From Candidatus Peribacteria bacterium (GTDB taxonomy: Bacteria > Patescibacteriota > Gracilibacteria > Peribacterales > Peribacteraceae): a DNA stretch of 44,661 nt. The stretch lies in assembly GCA_903854455.1 (NCBI GenBank), contig CAINWJ010000159.1:1-44661 (forward strand). Direction: 5' to 3'. The translations under genes were made by a program, and so were the position numbers. This document shows, piece by piece, positions 5,712 through 38,309 of the stretch. Within the stretch, counting starts at the first letter, position 1; each line of letters starts with the position of its first letter. Below the pieces are notes generated by a model, which did not search any database, was not told the origin of the DNA, and saw only the letters and a list, made by a program, of their open reading frames with translations.

Positions 5712-5796
5712 GAGGGTCAGGTATCAGGGTCAGGGTCAGGGAACGCGCATGGAAAATTGAGAGGTCAATCCTGACCCCGACCCTCACCCTGACCCT
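5712..5796. repeat. Low-complexity inverted repeat, GGGTCAGG family
   Basis: G-arm 5712-5741 (gagggtcaggtatcagggtcagggtcaggg). C-arm 5770-5796 (cctgaccccgaccctcaccctgaccct). The loop is about 28 nt. It lies between the nrnA-like stop (5795, inside the C-arm) and the infB start (5659). Confidence 0.85.
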
Positions 5797-10470: not shown

Positions 10471-10478
10471 GAGGAATT

Positions 10479-10572
10479 GAGAATGTAAAATGTAGAATGT
10501 AGAATTATTGATTCACCGCAAGAGTAAGCGATGTACCGTCATTCTACATTTTACATTCTACATTTTACATTC
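10479..10572. repeat. Low-complexity inverted repeat, GAATGTA/AAATGTA family (ORF-less copy)
   Basis: G-arm 10479-10505 (gagaatgtaaaatgtagaatgtagaat). C-arm 10541-10572 (attctacattttacattctacattttacattc). The first 21 nt from the gaatgta start of the G-arm match the reverse complement of the C-arm exactly. The loop is 35 nt. Confidence 0.9.
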
Positions 10573-10594: not shown

Positions 10595-11413
10595 CTATGT
10601 CCGTCGGCGTGCACGATTATGCAGTACTGCTGCGTACAAACCCATCAAACCGACGGCAAGGAGAATGAAGTCCTCCGGTCCGGAACGCACCAGACGACGC
10701 GGGCGGCGCTGAAGAATCGCCGGAGCCAGGGAAGAAGCGGTGGACGATTGTGAAGAAGCGGAAGTAACCAAAGGCTTCAGGGGATCCGTACGATTCGAGT
10801 TAATCCGGGGACGCTCAGCCTGCCCATCAACTAATGAACGCATGGCAGTAAAAAAATTCCCGACAACGTGCCTTGCCCCGCTGGGAGGGAATAATGCCGC
10901 AGACAACTTCTGATGCAATCCCATGGCTTCCGTAGAGATGCTTCCGGCAATGAACACCGCTGCAACGATCGAAAGCAAACTGAGCCTGAGCGTGCGACGA
11001 CGGATCACGTGGAAAGCGAACAATCCGAGGAGGATAAGACCAAGAAGTGACAGGGGCAAAGACCAGAGAACGAAGAACCCGAGGAACAGGATATGGAAGG
11101 CACTTCCACGGGGATCGAAGATGGCGAGAACCAGCCAGAGGCAGAGCATGAAGAACGGATACCAGTGAAGCAGACGGAACTCGTAATCAGCACGGTTCTG
11201 ACGGAACTTCCTGTAGAGGCTAAGCGGATACAGAGCGGCAAGAACTGCCAGCAGCGACCAGTACTTCATGCTCTCCGGAAACGGTGGCAGGAGCGCGATG
11301 AGCGCACCAGTCAGACAGATAATTATGCCGAGGAGCAGCATGTACGCCGACTCTGTACGGTGTTTCAGGGGCACAGGAACGGTGATTTTCCTTGGATTGG
11401 AGGGGTATGTCAA
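10595..11413 (-). CDS. Multi-pass membrane protein, function unknown (272 aa)
   Basis: It has several hydrophobic helices, a Ser/Thr-rich linker and a final C-terminal helix. No family was recognised. Confidence 0.6.
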   Translation of the reverse strand: MTYPSNPRKITVPVPLKHRTESAYMLLLGIIICLTGALIALLPPFPESMKYWSLLAVLAALYPLSLYRKFRQNRADYEFRLLHWYPFFMLCLWLVLAIFDPRGSAFHILFLGFFVLWSLPLSLLGLILLGLFAFHVIRRRTLRLSLLSIVAAVFIAGSISTEAMGLHQKLSAALFPPSGARHVVGNFFTAMRSLVDGQAERPRINSNRTDPLKPLVTSASSQSSTASSLAPAILQRRPRRLVRSGPEDFILLAVGLMGLYAAVLHNRARRRT

Positions 11414-11431: not shown

Positions 11432-11510
11432 CGAATAGGCGTATAGGCGTTAAGCGAATAGACGAGTGGGGGAAGACTCGCTTACACGCTTAACGCTTAC
11501 ACGCTTAACG
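11432..11510. repeat. Low-complexity inverted repeat, GGCGTATA/GCGTTAAG family
   Basis: Arms are 11432-11466 and 11477-11510 with a 10-nt loop (tgggggaaga). Hand pairing gives about 24 Watson-Crick pairs, 3 G.T, 4 A.C and 2 A.A. Confidence 0.8.
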
Positions 11511-11949: not shown

Positions 11950-12041
11950 AGGTAAGGTATGTAAGATAAGTAAGGTACGTACAGCAGGGAAATTCTTCAG
12001 GCACCTACCTTACCTGCCTTACCTTCTTTACCTGCCTTACC
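11950..12041. repeat. Low-complexity inverted repeat, GGTAAGGTA family (locus A)
   Basis: G-arm 11950-11982 and C-arm 12002-12041. The C-arm is read as the last 15 codons (GKAGKEGKAGKVGA) of ORF 11997..12365. Confidence 0.85.
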
Positions 12042-13331: not shown

Positions 13332-13423
13332 GGCAGGTAAGGTAGGTAAGGAAAGTAAGGTACGTAAAGCACGTGTTTTCACCTACCTTACATACCTTAC
13401 GTGCAATACCTACCTTACTTTCC
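13332..13423. repeat. Low-complexity inverted repeat, GGTAAGGTA family (locus B)
   Basis: G-arm from 13332 (ggcaggtaaggtaggtaaggaaagtaaggtacgtaaag). C-arm 13380-13423 (cacctaccttacataccttacgtgcaatacctaccttactttcc). Confidence 0.88.
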
Positions 13424-13447: not shown

Positions 13448-13693
13448 TCAGGAAGGATTGGAAACTTCCCGGCCACGATTCAACGCTTGAAATAATTTTT
13501 TCAATGCGTCTGCACCACCACCAGCTAACGTTCGCTCTATAGGTGTCATTTCCCGATGTTCTGCAGAACCTGAACCAGTCGCATAATCATGACTTTCAAC
13601 TATCACCACACCGTCACCTAAGTCATGCATTACTGGTCCAACCTTGGCAAAAGGCAAACCACTAACATTCGAAGAAACAGAACCATTACTCAT
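13448..13693 (-). CDS. Small hypothetical protein (81 aa) translationally coupled to thrS
   Basis: Its ATG overlaps the thrS TGA in the sequence ATGA (13690-13693). No family was recognised. Confidence 0.45.
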   Translation of the reverse strand: MSNGSVSSNVSGLPFAKVGPVMHDLGDGVVIVESHDYATGSGSAEHREMTPIERTLAGGGADALKKLFQALNRGREVSNPS

Positions 13694-15498
13694 ACACCGA
13701 TAGTACTATGCAACAATCGCTTGTCAATATCTGTGATCACACTATCGATGAATGCATCCCGTGCTACCCCCACCTGCTTCTTCGTCTTCACATTGCGTAC
13801 GGTCACCGTCTTCTCCGCAATTTCACGATCACCGAGCACAACCAAGTAAGGAACCTTCATCATCTCACCGTCGCGGATGCGCTTGCCGAGGGAATCAGAT
13901 GACGGAAGAACCTCGACTCTCACTCCCCTCTTCTTGAGATCTGCTGCAAGCGTGGCAGCGGCTTCCTCATGCGGTGCGGCGACCGGAAGAATATTCACCT
14001 GGACAGGGGCAAGCCACAGCGGGAAGAGCCCTGCAAAGTGCTCGATCAGGAATCCAACGAGACGCTCGTGCGTGGAGAGAGGTGCGCGGTGAATGCACAG
14101 CGGCACCTTCTCAACACCATCCTTATCAATGTACTTGAGTCCGACCTTGCCCGGCACATCGAAGTCGACCTGATTGGTGGCCAGAGTAAATTCCCGTCCG
14201 ATGGCACTCCAGATCTGCACGTCGATTTTGGGACCGTAAAACGCCGCCTCGTCCGGCACCTCCACGTAATTGACGTTCTTCTTCTGCATTGCCTTGCGCA
14301 CCATCTCCTCGGTCTTGACCCACAATTTGGGTTCGTTCACGTACTTCTTCCCCAGTTCCTTGGGATCGTGGAGCGAAAGACGCATGACGTACTTGCCAAT
14401 ATCGAAGATCCGGAAATACTCAATGTACAGATCGATGACCGCGTTGAACTCCTGCTCGAACTGCTCCTCGGTCAAATAGATGTGCGCATCGTTCATGCAG
14501 AGCGAGCGAACCCGCATCAGACCGAAGAGCGCACCGGAATCCTCGTAACGATAACAATGGCCATACTCCGCCAGACGCATGGGGAGATCACGATAACTTC
14601 TGGCACTGCTCGCGAAGATCTGGTGGTGGTGCGGACAGTTCATGGGCTTCAGGTAATACTCCTCCTCTCCATCCAGCTTCATGGGCGGGAACATCGATGT
14701 TTTATAATGTGCCAAATGCCCTGTCTGAGCGTAGAGCTTGCCCTTGGCGATATGCGGTGTGCGGACTCTCAAATACCCACCCTTCTCCTCCATCTCTTTT
14801 CCAAGTGCCTCGATCTGGTCAACGATGATCGTCCCACGCGGCGTCCAGAGCGGCAGACCCGGACCCACCATGTCGGAGAATGCGAAGAGATCCAATTCCT
14901 TGCCGAGCTTCCGGTGATCGCGCTTCTTCGCTTCTTCCACCATTTTCAAGTGCGCATCCAATTCCGCCTTCGACGCAAAGGCTGCGACATAGATTCTGGT
15001 GAGCTGCTCACGTTTCTCATCTCCGCGCCAGTACGCACCGGCGAGAGTGGTCACCTTGAAACAATCAGCCGGAATGTCTTTCGTCGTCTCGACGTGCCCG
15101 CCCCGGCAGAGATCGACGAATGTGTTGTCACCCTTGGGGCCAATGTTCGTGTAATGCGTCACCGTCTTCACCTTCTCGTTCTTCTCCAGATCTTCGATCA
15201 GCTCGACCTTGAACTTCTGCTTCAGTTTGCGCCAGAACTTCTTCGCATCGGCGACCTTGAGCTCGTCGCACCGGAACGTCTGACCCTGGTAGATGATCTT
15301 CTTCATCTCCTTCTCGATCTTCGGCAGATCGCTGTCGGTAATAGGCTCAGCGAAGAGGAAGTCGTAGTAGCAACCGGTATCGATCGGCGGTCCGATGGTC
15401 ACGAGCGTGCCAGGCCAGAGATTGGTCACAGCCTGTGCGAGAACGTGCGCCAGGGAATGGCGGAGATGGTGAAGAGAATCTTCAGAGGTGGTGGGCAT
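13690..15498 (-). CDS. thrS: Threonine--tRNA ligase (no N-terminal TGS domain)
   Basis: The editing-domain motif HSLAHVL sits at residues 14-20, whereas it is near residue 70 in E. coli ThrRS. Class II core and anticodon-binding regions are present. 602 aa. Confidence 0.95.
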   Translation of the reverse strand: MPTTSEDSLHHLRHSLAHVLAQAVTNLWPGTLVTIGPPIDTGCYYDFLFAEPITDSDLPKIEKEMKKIIYQGQTFRCDELKVADAKKFWRKLKQKFKVELIEDLEKNEKVKTVTHYTNIGPKGDNTFVDLCRGGHVETTKDIPADCFKVTTLAGAYWRGDEKREQLTRIYVAAFASKAELDAHLKMVEEAKKRDHRKLGKELDLFAFSDMVGPGLPLWTPRGTIIVDQIEALGKEMEEKGGYLRVRTPHIAKGKLYAQTGHLAHYKTSMFPPMKLDGEEEYYLKPMNCPHHHQIFASSARSYRDLPMRLAEYGHCYRYEDSGALFGLMRVRSLCMNDAHIYLTEEQFEQEFNAVIDLYIEYFRIFDIGKYVMRLSLHDPKELGKKYVNEPKLWVKTEEMVRKAMQKKNVNYVEVPDEAAFYGPKIDVQIWSAIGREFTLATNQVDFDVPGKVGLKYIDKDGVEKVPLCIHRAPLSTHERLVGFLIEHFAGLFPLWLAPVQVNILPVAAPHEEAAATLAADLKKRGVRVEVLPSSDSLGKRIRDGEMMKVPYLVVLGDREIAEKTVTVRNVKTKKQVGVARDAFIDSVITDIDKRLLHSTIGV

Positions 15499-15514
15499 GG
15501 TGAGAGAGTACAGG

Positions 15515-15953
15515 GGAGAATGTAGAATGTAGAATGTAAAATGTAGAATGATGGAATTAATTCTTCTTACTGGACTTGATGATCGCTGTCAGCAACCGGA
15601 TCAATTCATCGACATCCTTGAGTAATGAAGCGGCTTCTTTGAGCGTAAAATAACCTCCGTCGCGCAACAGGGAAATCCAGTAATCTGATTCGTGAGCCTC
15701 ATTCAACGCGATATTCAACTTCGAGATAAATTCCTTCTTGCTTTGCGCGTTCACTCCTTCACGAATATTGGCCCCAATGCCAGTCCCTGAACGCAAGAGC
15801 TGATTACTCAAAACAAATTCGTGTTTTATCTTCGTCAAATATTGATACGCCTTCACAATGCGGTGTGCAAAAGCGTAACTCTTGACCACAACAATATTTT
15901 CTTTGGCTGGTTTTTCCATAACGTTCATTCTACATTCTATATTTTACATTCTC
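15515..15953. repeat. GAATGTA/AAATGTA-family inverted repeat whose arms bracket the four-helix-bundle ORF
   Basis: G-arm 15515-15549 (gagaatgtagaatgtagaatgtaaaatgtagaatg). C-arm 15926-15953 (cattctacattctatattttacattctc). The 376-nt loop is essentially the ORF 15557..15928, and the ORF start codon lies inside the C-arm. Confidence 0.85.
15557..15928 (-). CDS. Four-helix-bundle protein (23S rRNA intervening-sequence protein / Avd-like family)
   Basis: Family-typical core: SNQLLRSGTGIGANIREG...SKKEFISKLNIALNEAHESDYWISLL. 123 aa. Confidence 0.85.
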   Translation of the reverse strand: MNVMEKPAKENIVVVKSYAFAHRIVKAYQYLTKIKHEFVLSNQLLRSGTGIGANIREGVNAQSKKEFISKLNIALNEAHESDYWISLLRDGGYFTLKEAASLLKDVDELIRLLTAIIKSSKKN

Positions 15954-15960
15954 AATTTCG

Positions 15961-17388
15961 TCAGGCGCTAATTCCCACCTCCTTCTCGATCGTCCTTACC
16001 TCACGCAGCAACTGACCGTCCTCCTTCATCTTGGTCTCAATCTTCTCCACCGCATTCATGACCGTCGTGTGATCCCGATTGGAGAAAGTGGCACCCAGGC
16101 GGACATAGCTCATGCGAACGTGCTTCTTGCCGATGTACATGGCGATCTGGCGTGGAATCAGGATTTCCCGGACGCGCGATTCGCCGAGCATATCCGGAAC
16201 GGAAACGGAGAAATACTTGCTCACCGTCTCCAGTACATCCTGGAACGCGATGGCTTTCTCCGGCTCCTTCTCGAAACCGACATCCTCCTGCTTCCCATCC
16301 ATGGAATCGCAGAGCTTGTTCATGATCTCGGTCATGGATGAGACGGTCGGTACACACTGCTCCAGCTCATACTGGGCAACCGCCTGCATGAGAATTCCCT
16401 CCAGCTGGCGGATGCTCTTCGTGGCGTGCTCGGCAACGTAGCGAAGCACCTTCTCATCCAAGAGCAAACCGTACTCCTGCGCCTTTTCCGCAAGAATGGC
16501 ATAGCGAGTTTCATAATCAGGCATGGTGACATCCGCAACCATCCCACGCTCGAAGCGTGACACCAGACGATCCTGCATGATGGTCAACTCTTTCGGCGGA
16601 CGGTCGGAACTGATGATGATCTGCTTCCGTTCCTCAGTCAGCGTATTGAACGTATGGAACAATTCTTCCTGTGTTCGCTCTTTGTTCGCCAAGAACTGGA
16701 TGTCATCGATGATCAGCACATCAACTTCACGGTAGCGGCGACGGAACTGCTCCATCTTGCTGTGCTGGATGGCCTCAATGACCTGATTCGTGAAGTCCTC
16801 AGATGTTGTGTAGAGCACCACGGCATGCGGCATCGTGCGCAGGATGGCATTACCGGTTGCCTGCAGAAGGTGCGTCTTGCCGAGACCGACGCCACCGTAG
16901 ATGAAGAGTGGATTGTACTTGCCGCCGGGATCGCCTGCGACGGCTGAGCACGCTGCATGAGCCAACCGATTGACCGGACCCACGACGTAGTTCTCAAGCG
17001 AGTAGCGGGGATTTAAGAGCTTGCTCGTGAGACCTTCTGCGATCCGAACCTCAGCTCTTCCCGGCAACTTCCGGCGCTTCTTGTCGGGGAAATGTTCGAG
17101 GAGACGGAGTGTGCGGGTCGTATCGTCCTTGAGTCCCCCATCGACCTGATACACCACCTGATCGATCGTCGGATCGACCTCCTTGAGCGCGGCAATTGTC
17201 ATCGTCCGGTAGTGCTCCAGATGCCAGTTTAGGAACATCGGGAGCGGCAATCCAATCACCACGTTATTGCCCTCACGACCCAGAATCGTCGTGTCCTTAA
17301 ACCACGTGATGAACTGCCCGCGAGCCATCTGCGGCTCGATGAGAGTCAGTACTTTCAGCCAGAGATCGAGGTCGGGGGCGGGGGTCAC
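15961..17388 (-). CDS. dnaA: Chromosomal replication initiator protein DnaA
   Basis: Walker A GGVGLGKTHLL, Walker B LIIDDIQFL and the C-terminal DNA-binding region with NRDHTTV are present. The track gives a GTG start, so the exact start is uncertain. Confidence 0.95.
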   Translation of the reverse strand: MTPAPDLDLWLKVLTLIEPQMARGQFITWFKDTTILGREGNNVVIGLPLPMFLNWHLEHYRTMTIAALKEVDPTIDQVVYQVDGGLKDDTTRTLRLLEHFPDKKRRKLPGRAEVRIAEGLTSKLLNPRYSLENYVVGPVNRLAHAACSAVAGDPGGKYNPLFIYGGVGLGKTHLLQATGNAILRTMPHAVVLYTTSEDFTNQVIEAIQHSKMEQFRRRYREVDVLIIDDIQFLANKERTQEELFHTFNTLTEERKQIIISSDRPPKELTIMQDRLVSRFERGMVADVTMPDYETRYAILAEKAQEYGLLLDEKVLRYVAEHATKSIRQLEGILMQAVAQYELEQCVPTVSSMTEIMNKLCDSMDGKQEDVGFEKEPEKAIAFQDVLETVSKYFSVSVPDMLGESRVREILIPRQIAMYIGKKHVRMSYVRLGATFSNRDHTTVMNAVEKIETKMKEDGQLLREVRTIEKEVGISA

Positions 17389-17394
17389 GAGACG

Positions 17395-17568
17395 AGGTAA
17401 GGTAAGTAATGTAGGTAAAGGTAGGTAAGGTAGGTGAGATGTAAAAAGAATTATCGAGGATTGATGCTGCTAAGAGAGTGAAAGAAAGACAATAACCGAG
17501 AACTTTGATTGAAGGATTGTGAATGCACGTACCTTACTTACCTTACGTGCCTTACCTACCTTACCTAG
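17395..17568. repeat. Low-complexity inverted repeat, GGTAAGGTA family (locus C)
   Basis: G-arm 17395-17444 and C-arm 17526-17568, with a loop of about 81 nt. The rseP stop (17565-17567) lies in the C-arm, and the dnaA start is 7 nt from the G-arm. Confidence 0.88.
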
Positions 17569-19023: not shown

Positions 19024-22000
19024 CTATCTGCTGCCACCAAGGGTACTGATCCTCGCATCGATCCTCCGGAGCAAACGGTCACGTATGTTTCCGAGAATCA
19101 TTCGTGCCCCAGGAAACTGAGTCAATGCAAGTCGTTGATCGATGCGCTTGAGCAAACGCATGCGCATGAATTGAAGGAGCTGGAGAGCGGAAGAGGAGGA
19201 ATCATGAGTATCGGAGGCAGCATGAAGCACAGATGATGACGAGGAAGAAGATGCCATCGTTTGTTGTGCCGCTACCTCCATGCGACGTGCCAGTGTCTGA
19301 GAACGAGCACCTCCTGACGTCACGACGGTTGCCTGGGATGAAGCAGCGGACACTGAAGAGGAGGAGGATGACGAAGAGGAAGATGATGATGACGAAGAAG
19401 AGTCTGACGATGCTTGAGTGAAGACGCTGATCCTGTTACCGGAAGCATCTGAAACGAAAAGGCGACTTGAAGCCCCATCGTAAGTAACACCGGTGGGGTT
19501 ACTCATGCCATTCTGCGTGCCACCCCCCGCCGTACTCCGGGTGAAGTTCGGCTGTCCGAGAACGCTCAGAGCATTTTGTCCGTCAGTGATAGTGGCGATG
19601 TTCTGAATCGTGATTCTGTTATTCAAATATTCTACGATGAAGAGACGGCTCCCTGTCGGATCGTACGAGAGCCCGTAGGGATAGGAGACGCCGTTCTGCG
19701 TCGTAGCCGTCGCACTGGTATAGAAAACCGGCTGACCGAGCACGTTGTCCGGAATGCGATCGACAAACGTGCCGTTTGCATTGAGTGCATAGACGAGGAC
19801 GCGGTGATTGCCGAACTCGGAAACGAAGAGCCTGTGTCCGATAGTATCCACGGCCAGGGCGTAAGGAGATGACAACCCGAACTTGTTTGGCGCATTGCTC
19901 GACGATACTTTATTGAAGACCATGACCGGTGCCGCGATACTGTCATCCAGTTGCCCGAGACCATCGATAGCATTCTGACCGTCGGTCACGGTACTCACAT
20001 TCTGAACGATCATGCGATTATTCCCCGCATCAGAAATGAATAGGCGGTTCGATATCGGATCAAAAAGAACGCCATAGGGAGTCCTGAGGGTGTTCTGGGT
20101 GGTCCCGTAAGCACTCGCAGTGAAATTCGATTGTCCGAGGACATTCACGGCATTCTGACCGTTGACAATCGCTGCGACACTGAATGCCAGAACACGGTTA
20201 TTCTGAGTATCACTGACGAAGAGGCGACTGCCTGTCGGATCGTACGTGACGCCGAAAGGCGTATTCATGCCGTTCTGAGTCGCAGCGGAAGTGCTGCGGG
20301 AAAAGTTCGGTTGACCAAGGACGTTCGCCGCGTTTTGCCCGTCAGAAATGGACGCCACTGCCTGCACGATGACACGATTGTTGAGGTAATCCGCAATGAA
20401 GAGACGACTGTTTGTTGCATCGTAGTCGAGGCAGTAGGGATAATTCATACCGTTCTGCGTCGTGACACCCGCACTCCTCGCATAGTTCGGTTGACCTAAA
20501 ACATTCGCAGCATTCTGCCCGTCCGTGATGGAAGCAACATTCTGAACTAGCACGCGGCTATTACCGTAGTCAGCGATGAAGAGGCGGTTGCCGGCAGCAT
20601 CAAAGACCAAGCCATATGGATTGGAAATCCCGTTCTGGGTTGTGGCGGATGCACTCGATACGTAGTTCGGCTGACCCAGAATGTTCGCCGCGTTCTGCCC
20701 ATCGGTGATCGTACTGATGCTCTGAACGAGGATGCGCTTGTTGGTGTAATCGGCGATGAAGAGACGGCTGCCCGCCGGATCGTAGGCGAGACCAGTGGGA
20801 TACCCCATCCCGTTCTGCGTTACCGCAGTCACGTTGGTATAGAACACCGATTGTCCGAGGACGTTATCAGGGATGCGATCGACGAACGTGCCGTCGGCAT
20901 TCAGAGCAAACACGAGGACACGGTAGTTGTAGTAATCGGCGACGAAAAACCGATGACCCGTTGAATCCAGAGCAACGGCGCGACTGCCGCTGAGACCAAG
21001 CCTGTTCGGCAGATTCTGGACCGTTCCTTTCGTGAAAACCGGCGACGGGGCGCTGATGTTGTCATCGTATTGACCCAGAGCATCGACGGCATTCTGACCA
21101 TTAGAGATCACACTCACATCGTGGACGGAAACGCGATGATTGCCGTACTCGGCGACGAAGAGGCGACTATTCGTTGCGTCGTAGGCGATGCCGTAGGGGT
21201 TTTTGAGCCCGTTCTGCGTCGTAGCGGATGCAACAGACGAGAAGTTCGGTTGCCCGAGGACGTTCGCAGCATTCTGCCCGTCCGTGATGGAAGCAACGTT
21301 CTGCACAGTAACGCGTTGATTGCTACCCTCGGAGATGAAGAGTCGACTGTTCGTCGGATCGTACGCAAGCCCGACAGGACGATTCATGCCATTCTGCGTT
21401 GCTGCCGAGGCACCCGTCGAAAACACTGATTGCCCGAGGACGTTGTCAGGGATGCGATCGACGAAGGTGCCGTCTGCATTCAGGGCATACACGAGGACGC
21501 GGCTGTTCATGTAGTCCGCGACGAAGAGACGATGGCCCGCAGTATCGATGGCAGTGGAATAGGGCGAATACAGACCGAACTTGTTCGGATTGTTGTGCGC
21601 CGCGCCCTTGATGTAGACAGGCTGGGGCGCAATCACACTGTCGTCATACTGACCAAGTACATCCGCCGCATTCTGACCGTCGGTGATGGAAGCGACACTC
21701 TGGACAGAAACCCTGTTGTTATCTTTCTCTGAAATGAAGAGGCGGCTTGTTGCAGGTGAGTATGCAAGACCATACGGACCCTTCATACCATTCTGTGTCG
21801 TAGCGAAAGTAGCTGACGCATAGTTCGGTTGTCCCAGAACATTCGTCGCGTTCTGTCCGTCAGTGATGGAGGCGACAGTAAAAACCGTGACACGATGATT
21901 GCTGTTTTCAGCAACGAAGAGACGGCTTGTTGCCGAGTCGTAGGCGAGAAACATGGGAGTAGCCATGCCGTTCTGCGTAGTGACGTTGGTGATCTTTGTA

Positions 22001-22884
22001 TAGTTCGGTTGCCCGAGAACATTGGCGGCGTTCTGTCCGTCGGTGATCGTACTAACGCTATAGACGATGACGCGGTTATTGGTTGAGTCGGCGACGAAGA
22101 GGCGGCTGTTCGTTGAATCGTAGGCGAGACTGAAGGGATTCCTGAGCCCGTTCTGCGTCCCGGCAGATGTGCCGATCGAATAGTTCGGTTGACCCAGGAC
22201 ATTGGCGGCATTCTGTCCGTCGGTAATCGAACTGACGTTCTGAACGATGATGCGGTTATTGGTGTATTCAGAAATGAAGAGACGACTATTCGTTTCGTCG
22301 TAGACGATGCCAAAAGGAGTCTTGAGTCCGTTCTGTGTCGTGACGGCAGCATTGGAGGAATAGTTCGGCTGACCGAGGACATTCGTCGCGTTCTGTCCGT
22401 CGGTAATCGTACTGACGTTATAGACGATGACACGAATGTTGCCGTAGTCGACGACGAAGAGACGGCTGCCCGTCGAATCGTATGCGAGACTCATCGGAGA
22501 ACTCATCCCGTTCTGCGTTAATGCGGCTGTCGAGACGGAATAGGAACCTTGTCCAAGAACGTTATCCGGTATGCGATCAACGAACGTGTCGTCCGCGTTC
22601 AGCGCATAGACAAGGACACGGTTATTGGAATAATCAGCCAAGAACAGACGGTGTGCCACGGTATCGAGTGCCATCCCCTCTGGAGAATTCAGACCGAATC
22701 TATTGGGTCCGTTGCCCGCTCCGTTCTTGGAGAATACCGGTGACGGTACTGAGACATTGTCATTGTACTGACCGAGGACATCGACAGCGTTCTGACCATC
22801 CGTGAACGCCGCATGAACTTCGCCATGTACAAAAAATACTGCTCCAATGAACAGAATATTGAGGATGTATTGTTGCCAACGCAT
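19024..22884 (-). CDS. Secreted NHL-repeat beta-propeller protein (about 18 blades) with poly-Ser linker and helical C-terminal tail
   Basis: Signal peptide MRWQQYILNILFIGAVFFVHGEVHA. There are about 18 units of about 60 aa (NSRLF[VI]AD..NNRV.V..V.SITDGQNA.NVLGQPN...T.QNG...P.GLAYD). The DNA shows a 180-nt periodicity, for example at 22013, 22193 and 22373. An S-rich tract of 21 Ser in 22 residues (SSDSSS...) precedes the tail. Confidence 0.9.
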   Translation of the reverse strand: MRWQQYILNILFIGAVFFVHGEVHAAFTDGQNAVDVLGQYNDNVSVPSPVFSKNGAGNGPNRFGLNSPEGMALDTVAHRLFLADYSNNRVLVYALNADDTFVDRIPDNVLGQGSYSVSTAALTQNGMSSPMSLAYDSTGSRLFVVDYGNIRVIVYNVSTITDGQNATNVLGQPNYSSNAAVTTQNGLKTPFGIVYDETNSRLFISEYTNNRIIVQNVSSITDGQNAANVLGQPNYSIGTSAGTQNGLRNPFSLAYDSTNSRLFVADSTNNRVIVYSVSTITDGQNAANVLGQPNYTKITNVTTQNGMATPMFLAYDSATSRLFVAENSNHRVTVFTVASITDGQNATNVLGQPNYASATFATTQNGMKGPYGLAYSPATSRLFISEKDNNRVSVQSVASITDGQNAADVLGQYDDSVIAPQPVYIKGAAHNNPNKFGLYSPYSTAIDTAGHRLFVADYMNSRVLVYALNADGTFVDRIPDNVLGQSVFSTGASAATQNGMNRPVGLAYDPTNSRLFISEGSNQRVTVQNVASITDGQNAANVLGQPNFSSVASATTQNGLKNPYGIAYDATNSRLFVAEYGNHRVSVHDVSVISNGQNAVDALGQYDDNISAPSPVFTKGTVQNLPNRLGLSGSRAVALDSTGHRFFVADYYNYRVLVFALNADGTFVDRIPDNVLGQSVFYTNVTAVTQNGMGYPTGLAYDPAGSRLFIADYTNKRILVQSISTITDGQNAANILGQPNYVSSASATTQNGISNPYGLVFDAAGNRLFIADYGNSRVLVQNVASITDGQNAANVLGQPNYARSAGVTTQNGMNYPYCLDYDATNSRLFIADYLNNRVIVQAVASISDGQNAANVLGQPNFSRSTSAATQNGMNTPFGVTYDPTGSRLFVSDTQNNRVLAFSVAAIVNGQNAVNVLGQSNFTASAYGTTQNTLRTPYGVLFDPISNRLFISDAGNNRMIVQNVSTVTDGQNAIDGLGQLDDSIAAPVMVFNKVSSSNAPNKFGLSSPYALAVDTIGHRLFVSEFGNHRVLVYALNANGTFVDRIPDNVLGQPVFYTSATATTQNGVSYPYGLSYDPTGSRLFIVEYLNNRITIQNIATITDGQNALSVLGQPNFTRSTAGGGTQNGMSNPTGVTYDGASSRLFVSDASGNRISVFTQASSDSSSSSSSSSSSSSSSSVSAASSQATVVTSGGARSQTLARRMEVAAQQTMASSSSSSSVLHAASDTHDSSSSALQLLQFMRMRLLKRIDQRLALTQFPGARMILGNIRDRLLRRIDARISTLGGSR

Positions 22885-23681: not shown

Positions 23682-23790
23682 GGGGGGTAAGGTAGGTAAA
23701 GAAAGTAAGGTATGTAAGGTTGGTTTTTGGCTTTTATATGAGCTTTTCACCTACATTACGTACCTTACCTACAATACTTACATTACCTAG
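23682..23790. repeat. Low-complexity inverted repeat, GGTAAGGTA family (locus D)
   Basis: G-arm 23682-23723 and C-arm 23748-23790. It begins 3 nt after the comF stop. The G-arm is 31/34 identical to the G-arm of locus B. Confidence 0.88.
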
Positions 23791-30039: not shown

Positions 30040-30046
30040 TACGAAA

Positions 30047-30146
30047 AGTAAGGTAGGTATTGTAGGTAAGGTAAGTAAAGTAGGTGATCAATCAGCCCAC
30101 ATACCTTACGTACATTACCTACCTTACGTACCTTACATACCTTACC
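30047..30146. repeat. Low-complexity inverted repeat, GGTAAGGTA family (locus E)
   Basis: G-arm 30047-30087 and C-arm 30098-30146. It lies between the proB stop and the proC start. The 44-nt stretch 30044-30087, which contains the G-arm, is 39/44 identical to the reverse complement of the locus B C-arm. Confidence 0.88.
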
Positions 30147-32317: not shown

Positions 32318-32413
32318 TGGTTTGGTGGTTTGGTAGTTTACTGGTTGGGTAGTTTGGCTGTTTCAAAAAAGCATAAACCAGTAAACCATGAAAACCACCA
32401 AACTAGTAAACCC
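32318..32413. repeat. Low-complexity inverted repeat, GGTTTGGT/AGTTTACT family
   Basis: G-arm 32318-32357 (tggtttggtggtttggtagtttactggttgggtagtttgg). C-arm 32375-32413 (aaaccagtaaaccatgaaaaccaccaaactagtaaaccc). The loop contains tttcaaaaaagc. It fills the spacer between the convergent genes proA and dut. Confidence 0.88.
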
Positions 32414-38179: not shown

Positions 38180-38309
38180 GAGGAAATAGAGGAAAGAGAC
38201 GAAATAGAAGAATGAGAGAATTACCAAAAAAACGAACTGAAGATCCATTCTGATCTCCTCCTCTATTTCTTCGATTTCCAAATTTTCTTGTATCCTCTAT
38301 TTCCTCTCC
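38180..38309. repeat. Low-complexity inverted repeat, GAAATAGAGGA family
   Basis: G-arm 38180-38218 (gaggaaatagaggaaagagacgaaatagaagaatgagag). C-arm 38255-38309 (ctcctcctctatttcttcgatttcc...cctctatttcctctcc). It lies upstream of the Sel1 lipoprotein gene. Confidence 0.8.

Follow-up and report, generated by a model that had tools for sequence, protein, structure and literature searches.

The open reading frame (ORF) at 15557..15928 of the window, the whole stretch of 44,661 nucleotides of Candidatus Peribacteria DNA that was analysed, is on balance probably the gene of a selfish cassette of the type found in rRNA as 23S intervening sequences (IVSs). This cassette lies in an mRNA junction, would be expressed by read-through from dnaA, and has arms that would serve as RNase III-type substrates and probably also as recognition sites. 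We hold this reading with modest confidence. The architecture would mark the window locus as one of a kind of cassette known until now only as rRNA-splitting inserts. The element is envisaged as compact and horizontally travelling, made up of a four-helix-bundle (4HB) gene and two terminal tandem-repeat arrays of about 33 nt in inverted order and nothing else, and placed in a protein-coding operon junction rather than in rRNA. It would have little space for a promoter of its own and would be transcribed by read-through from dnaA. In the read-through transcript, base pairing between the arms would give a stem of about 27 bp with the ORF enclosed in its loop, and RNase III would cut this stem as in the Coxiella and Leptospira IVSs, which would free the 4HB mRNA and divide the dnaA message from that of thrS. 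Cleavage by RNase III at the window arms is proposed by analogy, such cleavage having been shown only for the Coxiella, Leptospira and Salmonella IVSs (PMC4990558). The features of the locus are as follows.

15557..15928, minus strand: 4HB ORF, 123 aa, identified by PF05635 and TIGR02436 profile matches and an AF2 model
15925..15957, minus strand: 5' arm (in the sense of the ORF), about 4.7 heptamers, AATTGAG AATGTAA AATATAG AATGTAG AATGA
15515..15551, minus strand: 3' arm (in the sense of the ORF), five heptamers (TCATTCTACATTTTACATTCTACATTCTACATTCTC)
15961..17388, minus strand: dnaA, upstream co-directional host gene, from a profile search of the ORFs
13690..15498, minus strand: thrS, downstream co-directional host gene, from a profile search of the ORFs
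about 15501..15514 (approximate coordinates), minus strand: thrS leader motif CCTGTACTCTCT, outside the cassette

An earlier sequence-only reading held that the ORF is bracketed by inverted GAATGTA arms. This was confirmed and the arms were refined to 15519-15551 and 15925-15957, a pair of 33 nt that is 85% complementary with 373 nt between; the pairing given earlier, 15516-15543 with 15926-15953, is 28 nt long at 89% complementarity. Both arms consist of tandem heptamers (TRF, period 7), and the window unit GAATGTA becomes AATGTAG when put in the register of the AAT[T/G]NNN family described below. The sequence GAATGTARAATGTA, at no more than one mismatch, occurs 10 times in the window, always either at this cassette or at the ORF-less hairpin of 10474-10572 described below, and 0 times in shuffled sequences. 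The cassette fits tightly between its host genes. The dnaA stop codon, TGA, occupies 15963-15961 and the onset of the 5' array is 3 nt beyond it, while the 3' arm begins 5 nt past the stop of the 4HB ORF and ends 16 nt short of the thrS ATG. The start codon of the ORF lies within an arm, as had been noticed earlier: the first ATG (15928-15926) falls within the 5' arm. An alternative in-frame ATG at 15919, nine bases on, gives a protein of 120 aa, which is the form held in the protein database (P0001).

The possibility was considered that the 4HB ORF is an ordinary resident small gene, neither mobile nor processed, whose arrays are its operator, promoter or terminator sites. The minus strand of the 5' arm at 15927-15955 contains TTGAGA and TAGAAT separated by 17 nt, which agrees with the sigma-70 consensus at 10 of 12 positions and ends 7 nt ahead of the second in-frame ATG (15919). 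Because the 5' arm resembles a sigma-70 promoter, read-through from dnaA may not be required. The mirror (3') arm yields a weaker promoter-like match that faces inward. The purifying selection on the protein, described below, would also suit a resident gene. However, the promoter scan returned 2 sites against 1.2 expected from shuffles, so that the promoter-like match is not above chance. Moreover, the distribution of the ORF is patchy, with a 4HB ORF at the junction in the window and L158 only among about 70 Peribacteria, the protein and its arms are common to different phyla, and there are copies on viral contigs. A resident gene is considered improbable.

The product of the window ORF scored 94 bits against PF05635 (cut-off 33.8) and 103.5 bits against TIGR02436 (cut-off 24). 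[quoted passage not shown] The AF2 model has four helices with a pLDDT of 94, arranged as an up-and-down four-helix bundle. The closest solved structure by Foldseek was 2RLD (BT_0352), at a TM score of 0.87-0.98 and 51% identity; further matches were 2GSC (Xcc0516), the Avd protein 4DWL at a TM score of 0.74-0.84 and 15% identity, and the ribonucleoprotein of a diversity-generating retroelement (DGR), 8UB7. PF05635 is the sole family matched by the cassette protein, which has no known nuclease or recombinase motif, and PADLOC defence-family profiles gave nothing for the ORF at E <= 0.1.

The likeness of the fold to Avd 4DWL and to the DGR ribonucleoprotein 8UB7, together with the inclusion of Avd-like proteins in PF05635 (PMC10053308), raises the possibility that the ORF encodes the accessory protein of a DGR. 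The neighbours, however, are housekeeping genes, and the nearest solved relative, BT_0352, is a non-DGR protein. A greedy longest-ORF scan of the window gave 31 non-overlapping ORFs with a minimum length of 80 aa; checked against Pfam, they included no reverse transcriptase, transposase or integrase, and inverted-repeat and tandem-repeat searches found no TR/VR-like long direct repeat near the 4HB ORF, in keeping with the earlier statement that the window has no DGR partners. The arm-less 4HB genes on viral contigs were also considered as candidate DGR Avds, and no reverse transcriptase was found among their neighbours. A DGR role for the window ORF is not supported and is regarded as extremely improbable.

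The packaging of the window ORF was compared with that of two 4HB subfamilies. The first (A1) was taken from a homologue alignment as the best 80 most similar 4HB loci and spans a wide range of phyla; the second (A2, the L158 type) comprised 77 metagenomic loci drawn from the best 80 most similar to the query. In A1, an inverted repeat with a score of at least 17 brackets 60 of 79 4HB ORFs, compared with 1 of 120 control genes, which were non-adjacent genes of the same loci (Mann-Whitney p = 1e-27). The brackets are inverted arrays, 25-40 nt long, of AAT[T/G]NNN heptamers such as AATTACG, AATTGAC, AATTAGG and AATGCAC, and the period was 7 in 61 of the 61 arms analysed. The median gap is 15 nt from arm to ATG and 6 nt from stop to arm. 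On either side of the A2 ORFs stand NNATTG[T/C]T octamers in inverted arrays, whose period was 8 in 51 of 52 scored loci. The arm length is constant, at five heptamers in A1 or four octamers in A2, that is, about 32-35 nt. Similar packaging was found in 11 of 18 relatives on viral contigs. The family is large, two PF05635/TIGR02436 searches having listed at least 769 and at least 2,759 relatives.

A pattern search for GAATGTA arrays returned at least 119 loci from many phyla. Six of them (L009, L053, L065, L072, L087 and L092) have a 4HB ORF between inverted arrays, and ORF-less hairpins are many more. Four of the loci (L002, L003, L087 and L111) belong to one Bacillota MAG, in which one ORF-bearing copy is accompanied by at least three ORF-less copies whose loops contain small terminator-like hairpins in place of ORF remnants. 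Three GAATGTA-armed hairpins stand head to tail, every 170 nt, at the contig end of a Cloacimonadota MAG (L013 5604-6027). The content of the loop differs in Moorena producens (L019 5398-5918), where inverted GAATGTA arrays enclose a long tandem repeat that translates as (LLPIAYC)n, with no 4HB gene. A link to the published TAACTGA heptamer repeats (PMC4679880), which read AGTTATC on the other strand, was considered and rejected, as 0 4HB genes were found in 120 loci; these loci, 94 of which have direct arrays only, were used as a specificity control. The fetched loci included no rRNA-embedded copies and only tRNA neighbours. At three loci (L259 2362-2446, L272 2883-2955 and L278 2533-2612) the 4HB cassette directly adjoins a co-directional tRNA gene, and stable-RNA transcripts besides rRNA therefore host cassettes.

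The cassettes have a fixed orientation relative to their hosts. The upstream gene is co-directional with the ORF at 53 of 56 A1 loci and 56 of 59 A2 loci. Within co-directional spacers, the ORF was found in the '++' arrangement 35 times in A1 and 47 times in A2 and never in the '--' arrangement, a total of 82 versus 0. As a symmetric DNA element needs no orientation, this bias points to dependence on the host transcript. Measured from the stop codon of the upstream gene, the onset of the 5' array falls at a median of -3 nt for one set and +2 nt for the other, about 20 host ORFs have their stop codon inside the 5' array, and the 3' arm often adjoins the start codon of the next gene.

Furthermore, the repeat unit is matched to the protein. 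Protein pairs that share a repeat unit are 65% identical, compared with 53% for other pairs (permutation p < 0.0005), and cross-phylum pairs with common AATTACG, AATTAGG or AATTCGG arms reach 74-83% protein identity. The dN/dS ratio of the 4HB genes is 0.03-0.09, indicative of purifying selection, with synonymous sites saturated where it could be computed. The match between unit and protein similarity and the low dN/dS argue that the arms and the ORF move together and that the protein is functional. The features of a cut-and-paste IS or MITE were not seen: direct-repeat flanks occurred at 2 of 47 loci at k = 2, against 2.9 expected by chance, so that there is no target-site duplication, and there is no transposase in the cassette or among the 31 window ORFs. 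Nor did these 47 loci and 31 ORFs reveal a recombinase, reverse transcriptase or target-site duplication that would account for mobility.

When the 461-nt sense RNA was folded, the long-range stem between the arms was present in both the minimum-free-energy and the centroid structures. The topology of an IVS, a long stem with the ORF in its loop, which the sequence-only reading had proposed in an mRNA context, therefore holds for the window, and the analogy was strengthened by the stem and heptamers of the Coxiella IVS (PMC4990558) and by the packaging of the two subfamilies. The insert is enclosed, as in an IVS, by a terminal inverted-repeat stem of at least about 20 bp; the site, however, is the dnaA-thrS junction and not a helix within a 23S or 16S rRNA gene.

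In their composition, the arms give no sign of selection for pairing. Mismatches between the arms are G.U in 47 cases and A.C in 49 in one subfamily, and 109 and 103 in the other, so that G.U pairs are not in excess. Where the octamer varies between T and C, a C in the 5' arm stands opposite G 90 times and opposite A 77 times; pairing as such is therefore not visibly selected. The core motif specific to each subfamily is nevertheless conserved, with no compensatory covariation. This combination suggests that the arms are more than a generic RNase III stem. Since the subfamily-specific core is kept in the absence of compensatory change, the arms are probably also sequence-specific recognition sites, perhaps for the 4HB pentamer, and the arrays would thus behave as repeated recognition sites set in inverted order. 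More tentatively, the 4HB pentamer itself is predicted to be the likeliest reader of the arms, because in the pentamer of its homologue Avd all five protomers take part in binding an RNA stem-loop (bioRxiv 10.1101/2023.10.23.563531).

The window contains a second, ORF-less hairpin of the GAATGTA family, 5 kb away from the cassette. Its presence, with a 35-nt loop, had been reported by the sequence-only reading and was confirmed, with arms placed as follows.

10474..10505, no strand assigned: first arm of the ORF-less hairpin, its end 3 nt away from the start codon of eno (10470)
10541..10572, no strand assigned: second arm of the ORF-less hairpin, 22 nt from the stop of ORF 10595-11413

The hairpin at 10474-10572 can alternatively be drawn with 25-nt arms at 96% complementarity and folds at -43.2 kcal/mol (z = -10). 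By eye, its 35-nt loop has no similarity to the interior of the cassette. Tentatively, this hairpin may be a copy that has decayed, or else a satellite site belonging to the cassette system.

About ten more intergenic hairpins with tandem-repeat arms of other periods (6, 8 and 9) are present in the window, among them the following.

5713-5796: hairpin, tandem-repeat arms
11436-11507: hairpin, tandem-repeat arms
11950-12033: hairpin, tandem-repeat arms
13337-13418: hairpin, tandem-repeat arms
17395-17566: hairpin, tandem-repeat arms
23686-23787: hairpin, tandem-repeat arms
30046-30146: hairpin, tandem-repeat arms
32320-32403: hairpin, tandem-repeat arms
38180-38306: hairpin, tandem-repeat arms

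Five of these are built of the 9-mer AGGTAAGGT, and the rest have periods of 8 and 6. They enclose no ORF, and no cognate gene for them was found within the window. A search of the window with Rfam returned just two tRNAs at the gathering score, and the hairpins are covered by no RNA family. A further 4HB subfamily with period-9 arms was not found among 74 Peribacteria loci. Tandem repetition is also seen in coding sequence: a 180-nt tandem repeat is present in about 3.4 copies at 21914-22543 within ORF 19024-22884, which encodes a 1286-aa NHL-repeat/beta-propeller protein with a weak Ntox43 match.

The main rival explanation is a DNA system of the REP/RAYT type, in which the 4HB protein would bind its cognate arrays and spread or maintain them, the array-flanked gene being the master copy, the ORF-less hairpins the dispersed sites and the RNA stem incidental. 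The subfamily-specific core motif, with neither compensatory covariation nor G.U bias, agrees with such a system, as do the ORF-less GAATGTA hairpin of the window and the ORF-less copies that accompany the single ORF-bearing copy in the Bacillota MAG. Some ORFs, moreover, lie between two complete hairpins. At L234 (2331-2888), and also at L205 and L253, the 4HB ORF has a whole ORF-less hairpin (arm-loop-arm) on one or both sides, an arrangement that is reminiscent of REPtrons. The absence of target-site duplication is likewise shared with IS200/IS605 and REP elements, which do not duplicate their targets. On the other hand, the protein is a small all-helical bundle in which no known nuclease or recombinase motif is recognised, the 82-to-0 co-orientation is unexpected of a symmetric DNA element, and the same genome has the hairpins of periods 6, 8 and 9 with no cognate ORF in view. 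This explanation is considered unlikely but by no means negligible.

The history of the insertion was approached through the dnaA-thrS junction of related genomes. DnaA relatives put the window among the Candidatus Peribacteria, within the CPR. The synteny of the two genes is kept in about 70 Peribacteria, with spacers whose length ranges between 3 nt and over 2 kb. In 15 relatives the spacer is 3-56 nt and the hairpin is absent. The closest genome by DnaA (L129, 94% identity) and L131 have ORF-less junction hairpins of ATTGTT octamers, which differ from the GAATGTA arms of the window; L137, L148 and L124 have ORF-less junction hairpins of other heptamers; and L158 has a distant 4HB ORF within ATTGTT arms. 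The varied contents of the junction argue that the 4HB ORF of the window is a gain, at a site colonised repeatedly by different lineages of such elements. The motif CTGCTACTCTT is found just ahead of thrS in the relatives with an empty junction, and the window retains it outside the 3' arm; it therefore represents the host side of the 3' junction. A CTG(C)TACTCT(T) motif is found 5-15 nt before the thrS start across Peribacteria (the window, L128, L163, L132, L137 and L135), some of them with an empty junction, and could represent an operator or leader element of thrS. In the genome of the closest relative, Peribacteraceae STB_185 (L038 7551-7590), about five TACATTY heptamers form a solo array, with no inverted partner, that is placed between the L7/L12 gene start and the TAA of the ORF upstream. 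The GAATGTA family is therefore present in the sister genome too.

The sequence-only reading had offered, as an alternative, that heptamer hairpins are host structures such as terminators or insulators and that their loops are where a free 4HB ORF inserts. The ORF-less tandem-repeat hairpins at the junction in L129, L131, L137, L148 and L124 would be expected if this were so, as would the ten or so other hairpins of the window. However, across phyla the unit and the period go with the protein subfamily and with how similar the proteins are, each subfamily having a repeat of its own, and in the relative with 94% identity the arms at this very junction are ATTGTT octamers rather than GAATGTA. 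In addition, the arms come within 6-15 nt of the ORF and conserved ORF-proximal ends are not visible, and the 120 AGTTATC loci of the specificity control have no 4HB genes. Loop insertion by a free ORF is thus highly improbable. What stood of the earlier interpretation was the protein family, the IVS-like topology and the lack of DGR partners; the loop-insertion alternative did not.

Proteins of the PF05635/TIGR02436 family are abundant, and no function for them outside DGRs was found in the literature consulted. Since the 1990s the term selfish has been applied to intervening sequences of rRNA with ORFs of this family, and the same literature yielded no explanation of the way in which those that bear 4HB genes spread. 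The general architecture of arms and 4HB gene was not found described in the searchable literature, in which the Coxiella heptamers alone were noted, as a local detail. The stereotyped package, with subfamily-specific arms of constant length, co-orientation, a start at the stop codon and co-inheritance of arms and protein, makes this a defined element. One may go further and suppose that each 4HB subfamily is a protein-plus-repeat system, the pentamer recognising its own arms as an RNA duplex or a DNA hairpin; we regard this as rather unlikely. It is a comparably speculative step to suppose that such recognition would drive the spread of the cassette and its ORF-less satellites to the stop-codon side of operon junctions, to tRNA genes and to rRNA helices. 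If a protein-plus-repeat system of this kind were true, it would constitute a new class of mobile element that has no conventional recombinase and would explain the 23S rRNA IVSs as well as many genes of unknown function annotated 'four helix bundle protein'.

The results also call for caution, in that 4HB genes found within cas, ribosomal or replication operons are not thereby functional partners. In Pleurocapsa sp. PCC 7327, a 4HB gene between cmr3 and cmr2 was reported as 'CRISPR-associated' (PMC3936711). A 4HB gene between co-directional cas genes is what an operon-junction cassette predicts, and the association may therefore be positional rather than functional.

The selfish IVS-type cassette favoured here shares individual features with several known systems. 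The omega repressor operators of inc18 plasmids and the subterminal repeats of transposons are arrays of 7-bp units, direct or inverted, to which proteins bind cooperatively. The cassette arms are like the omega heptad operators in their 7-bp units; the omega repressor, however, is a ribbon-helix-helix protein in a plasmid context, whereas the cassette protein is a 4HB whose binding to the arms is putative. The Correia/NEMIS elements of Neisseria are short, have terminal inverted repeats, are co-transcribed with their neighbours and form an RNA hairpin cut by RNase III. The cassette is similar in its short length and terminal inverted repeats. Unlike it, Correia elements have no ORF; they also occur in one genus only and generate a duplication of their TA target.

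In a REPtron, a short repeat stands in inverted orientation on both sides of the RAYT gene and is also present as ORF-less intergenic hairpins. A repeat-flanked gene with dispersed ORF-less copies was likewise found in the window and in the Bacillota MAG. However, RAYT is an HUH/Y1 transposase and the cassette protein is a 4HB with no nuclease motif. Furthermore, the repeats of the cassette are tandem 7- or 8-mers and its ORF is strictly co-oriented with the upstream gene, in contrast to the REP/RAYT system.

With Avd (4DWL, 8UB7) the cassette protein shares the four-helix-bundle fold, and homologues crystallise as five chains. In a DGR, avd is base-paired at its end with RNA that lies downstream (bioRxiv 10.1101/2023.10.23.563531). 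The window locus differs from avd in having no reverse transcriptase or TR/VR pair and a sequence identity of just 15%, and flanking tandem-repeat arrays like those of the cassette are undescribed in the DGR literature consulted.

In arrangement, the cassette is like the 23S rRNA IVSs of Coxiella and Leptospira, whose terminal inverted repeats form a stem of about 28 bp with an ORF of the same family in its loop. In the Coxiella IVS, RNase III cuts the 28-bp terminal stem midway along its length, and the S23p ORF is accompanied by tandem GACAGAT heptamers, variable in copy number between strains; this IVS is contained within the host transcript, is patchy in distribution and is viewed as selfish (PMC4990558). 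The window cassette resembles these IVSs in the tandem heptamers that adjoin the ORF, in its patchy distribution and, by analogy, in being part of a host transcript. It differs in that the host transcript would be an mRNA (dnaA-thrS), whereas theirs is 23S rRNA, at helix 45, and in that the window arms consist entirely of five heptamers, unlike the Coxiella IVS. Finally, the S23p of Coxiella is decaying and apparently not made (PMC4990558), whereas the window protein is intact and belongs to a family under purifying selection.
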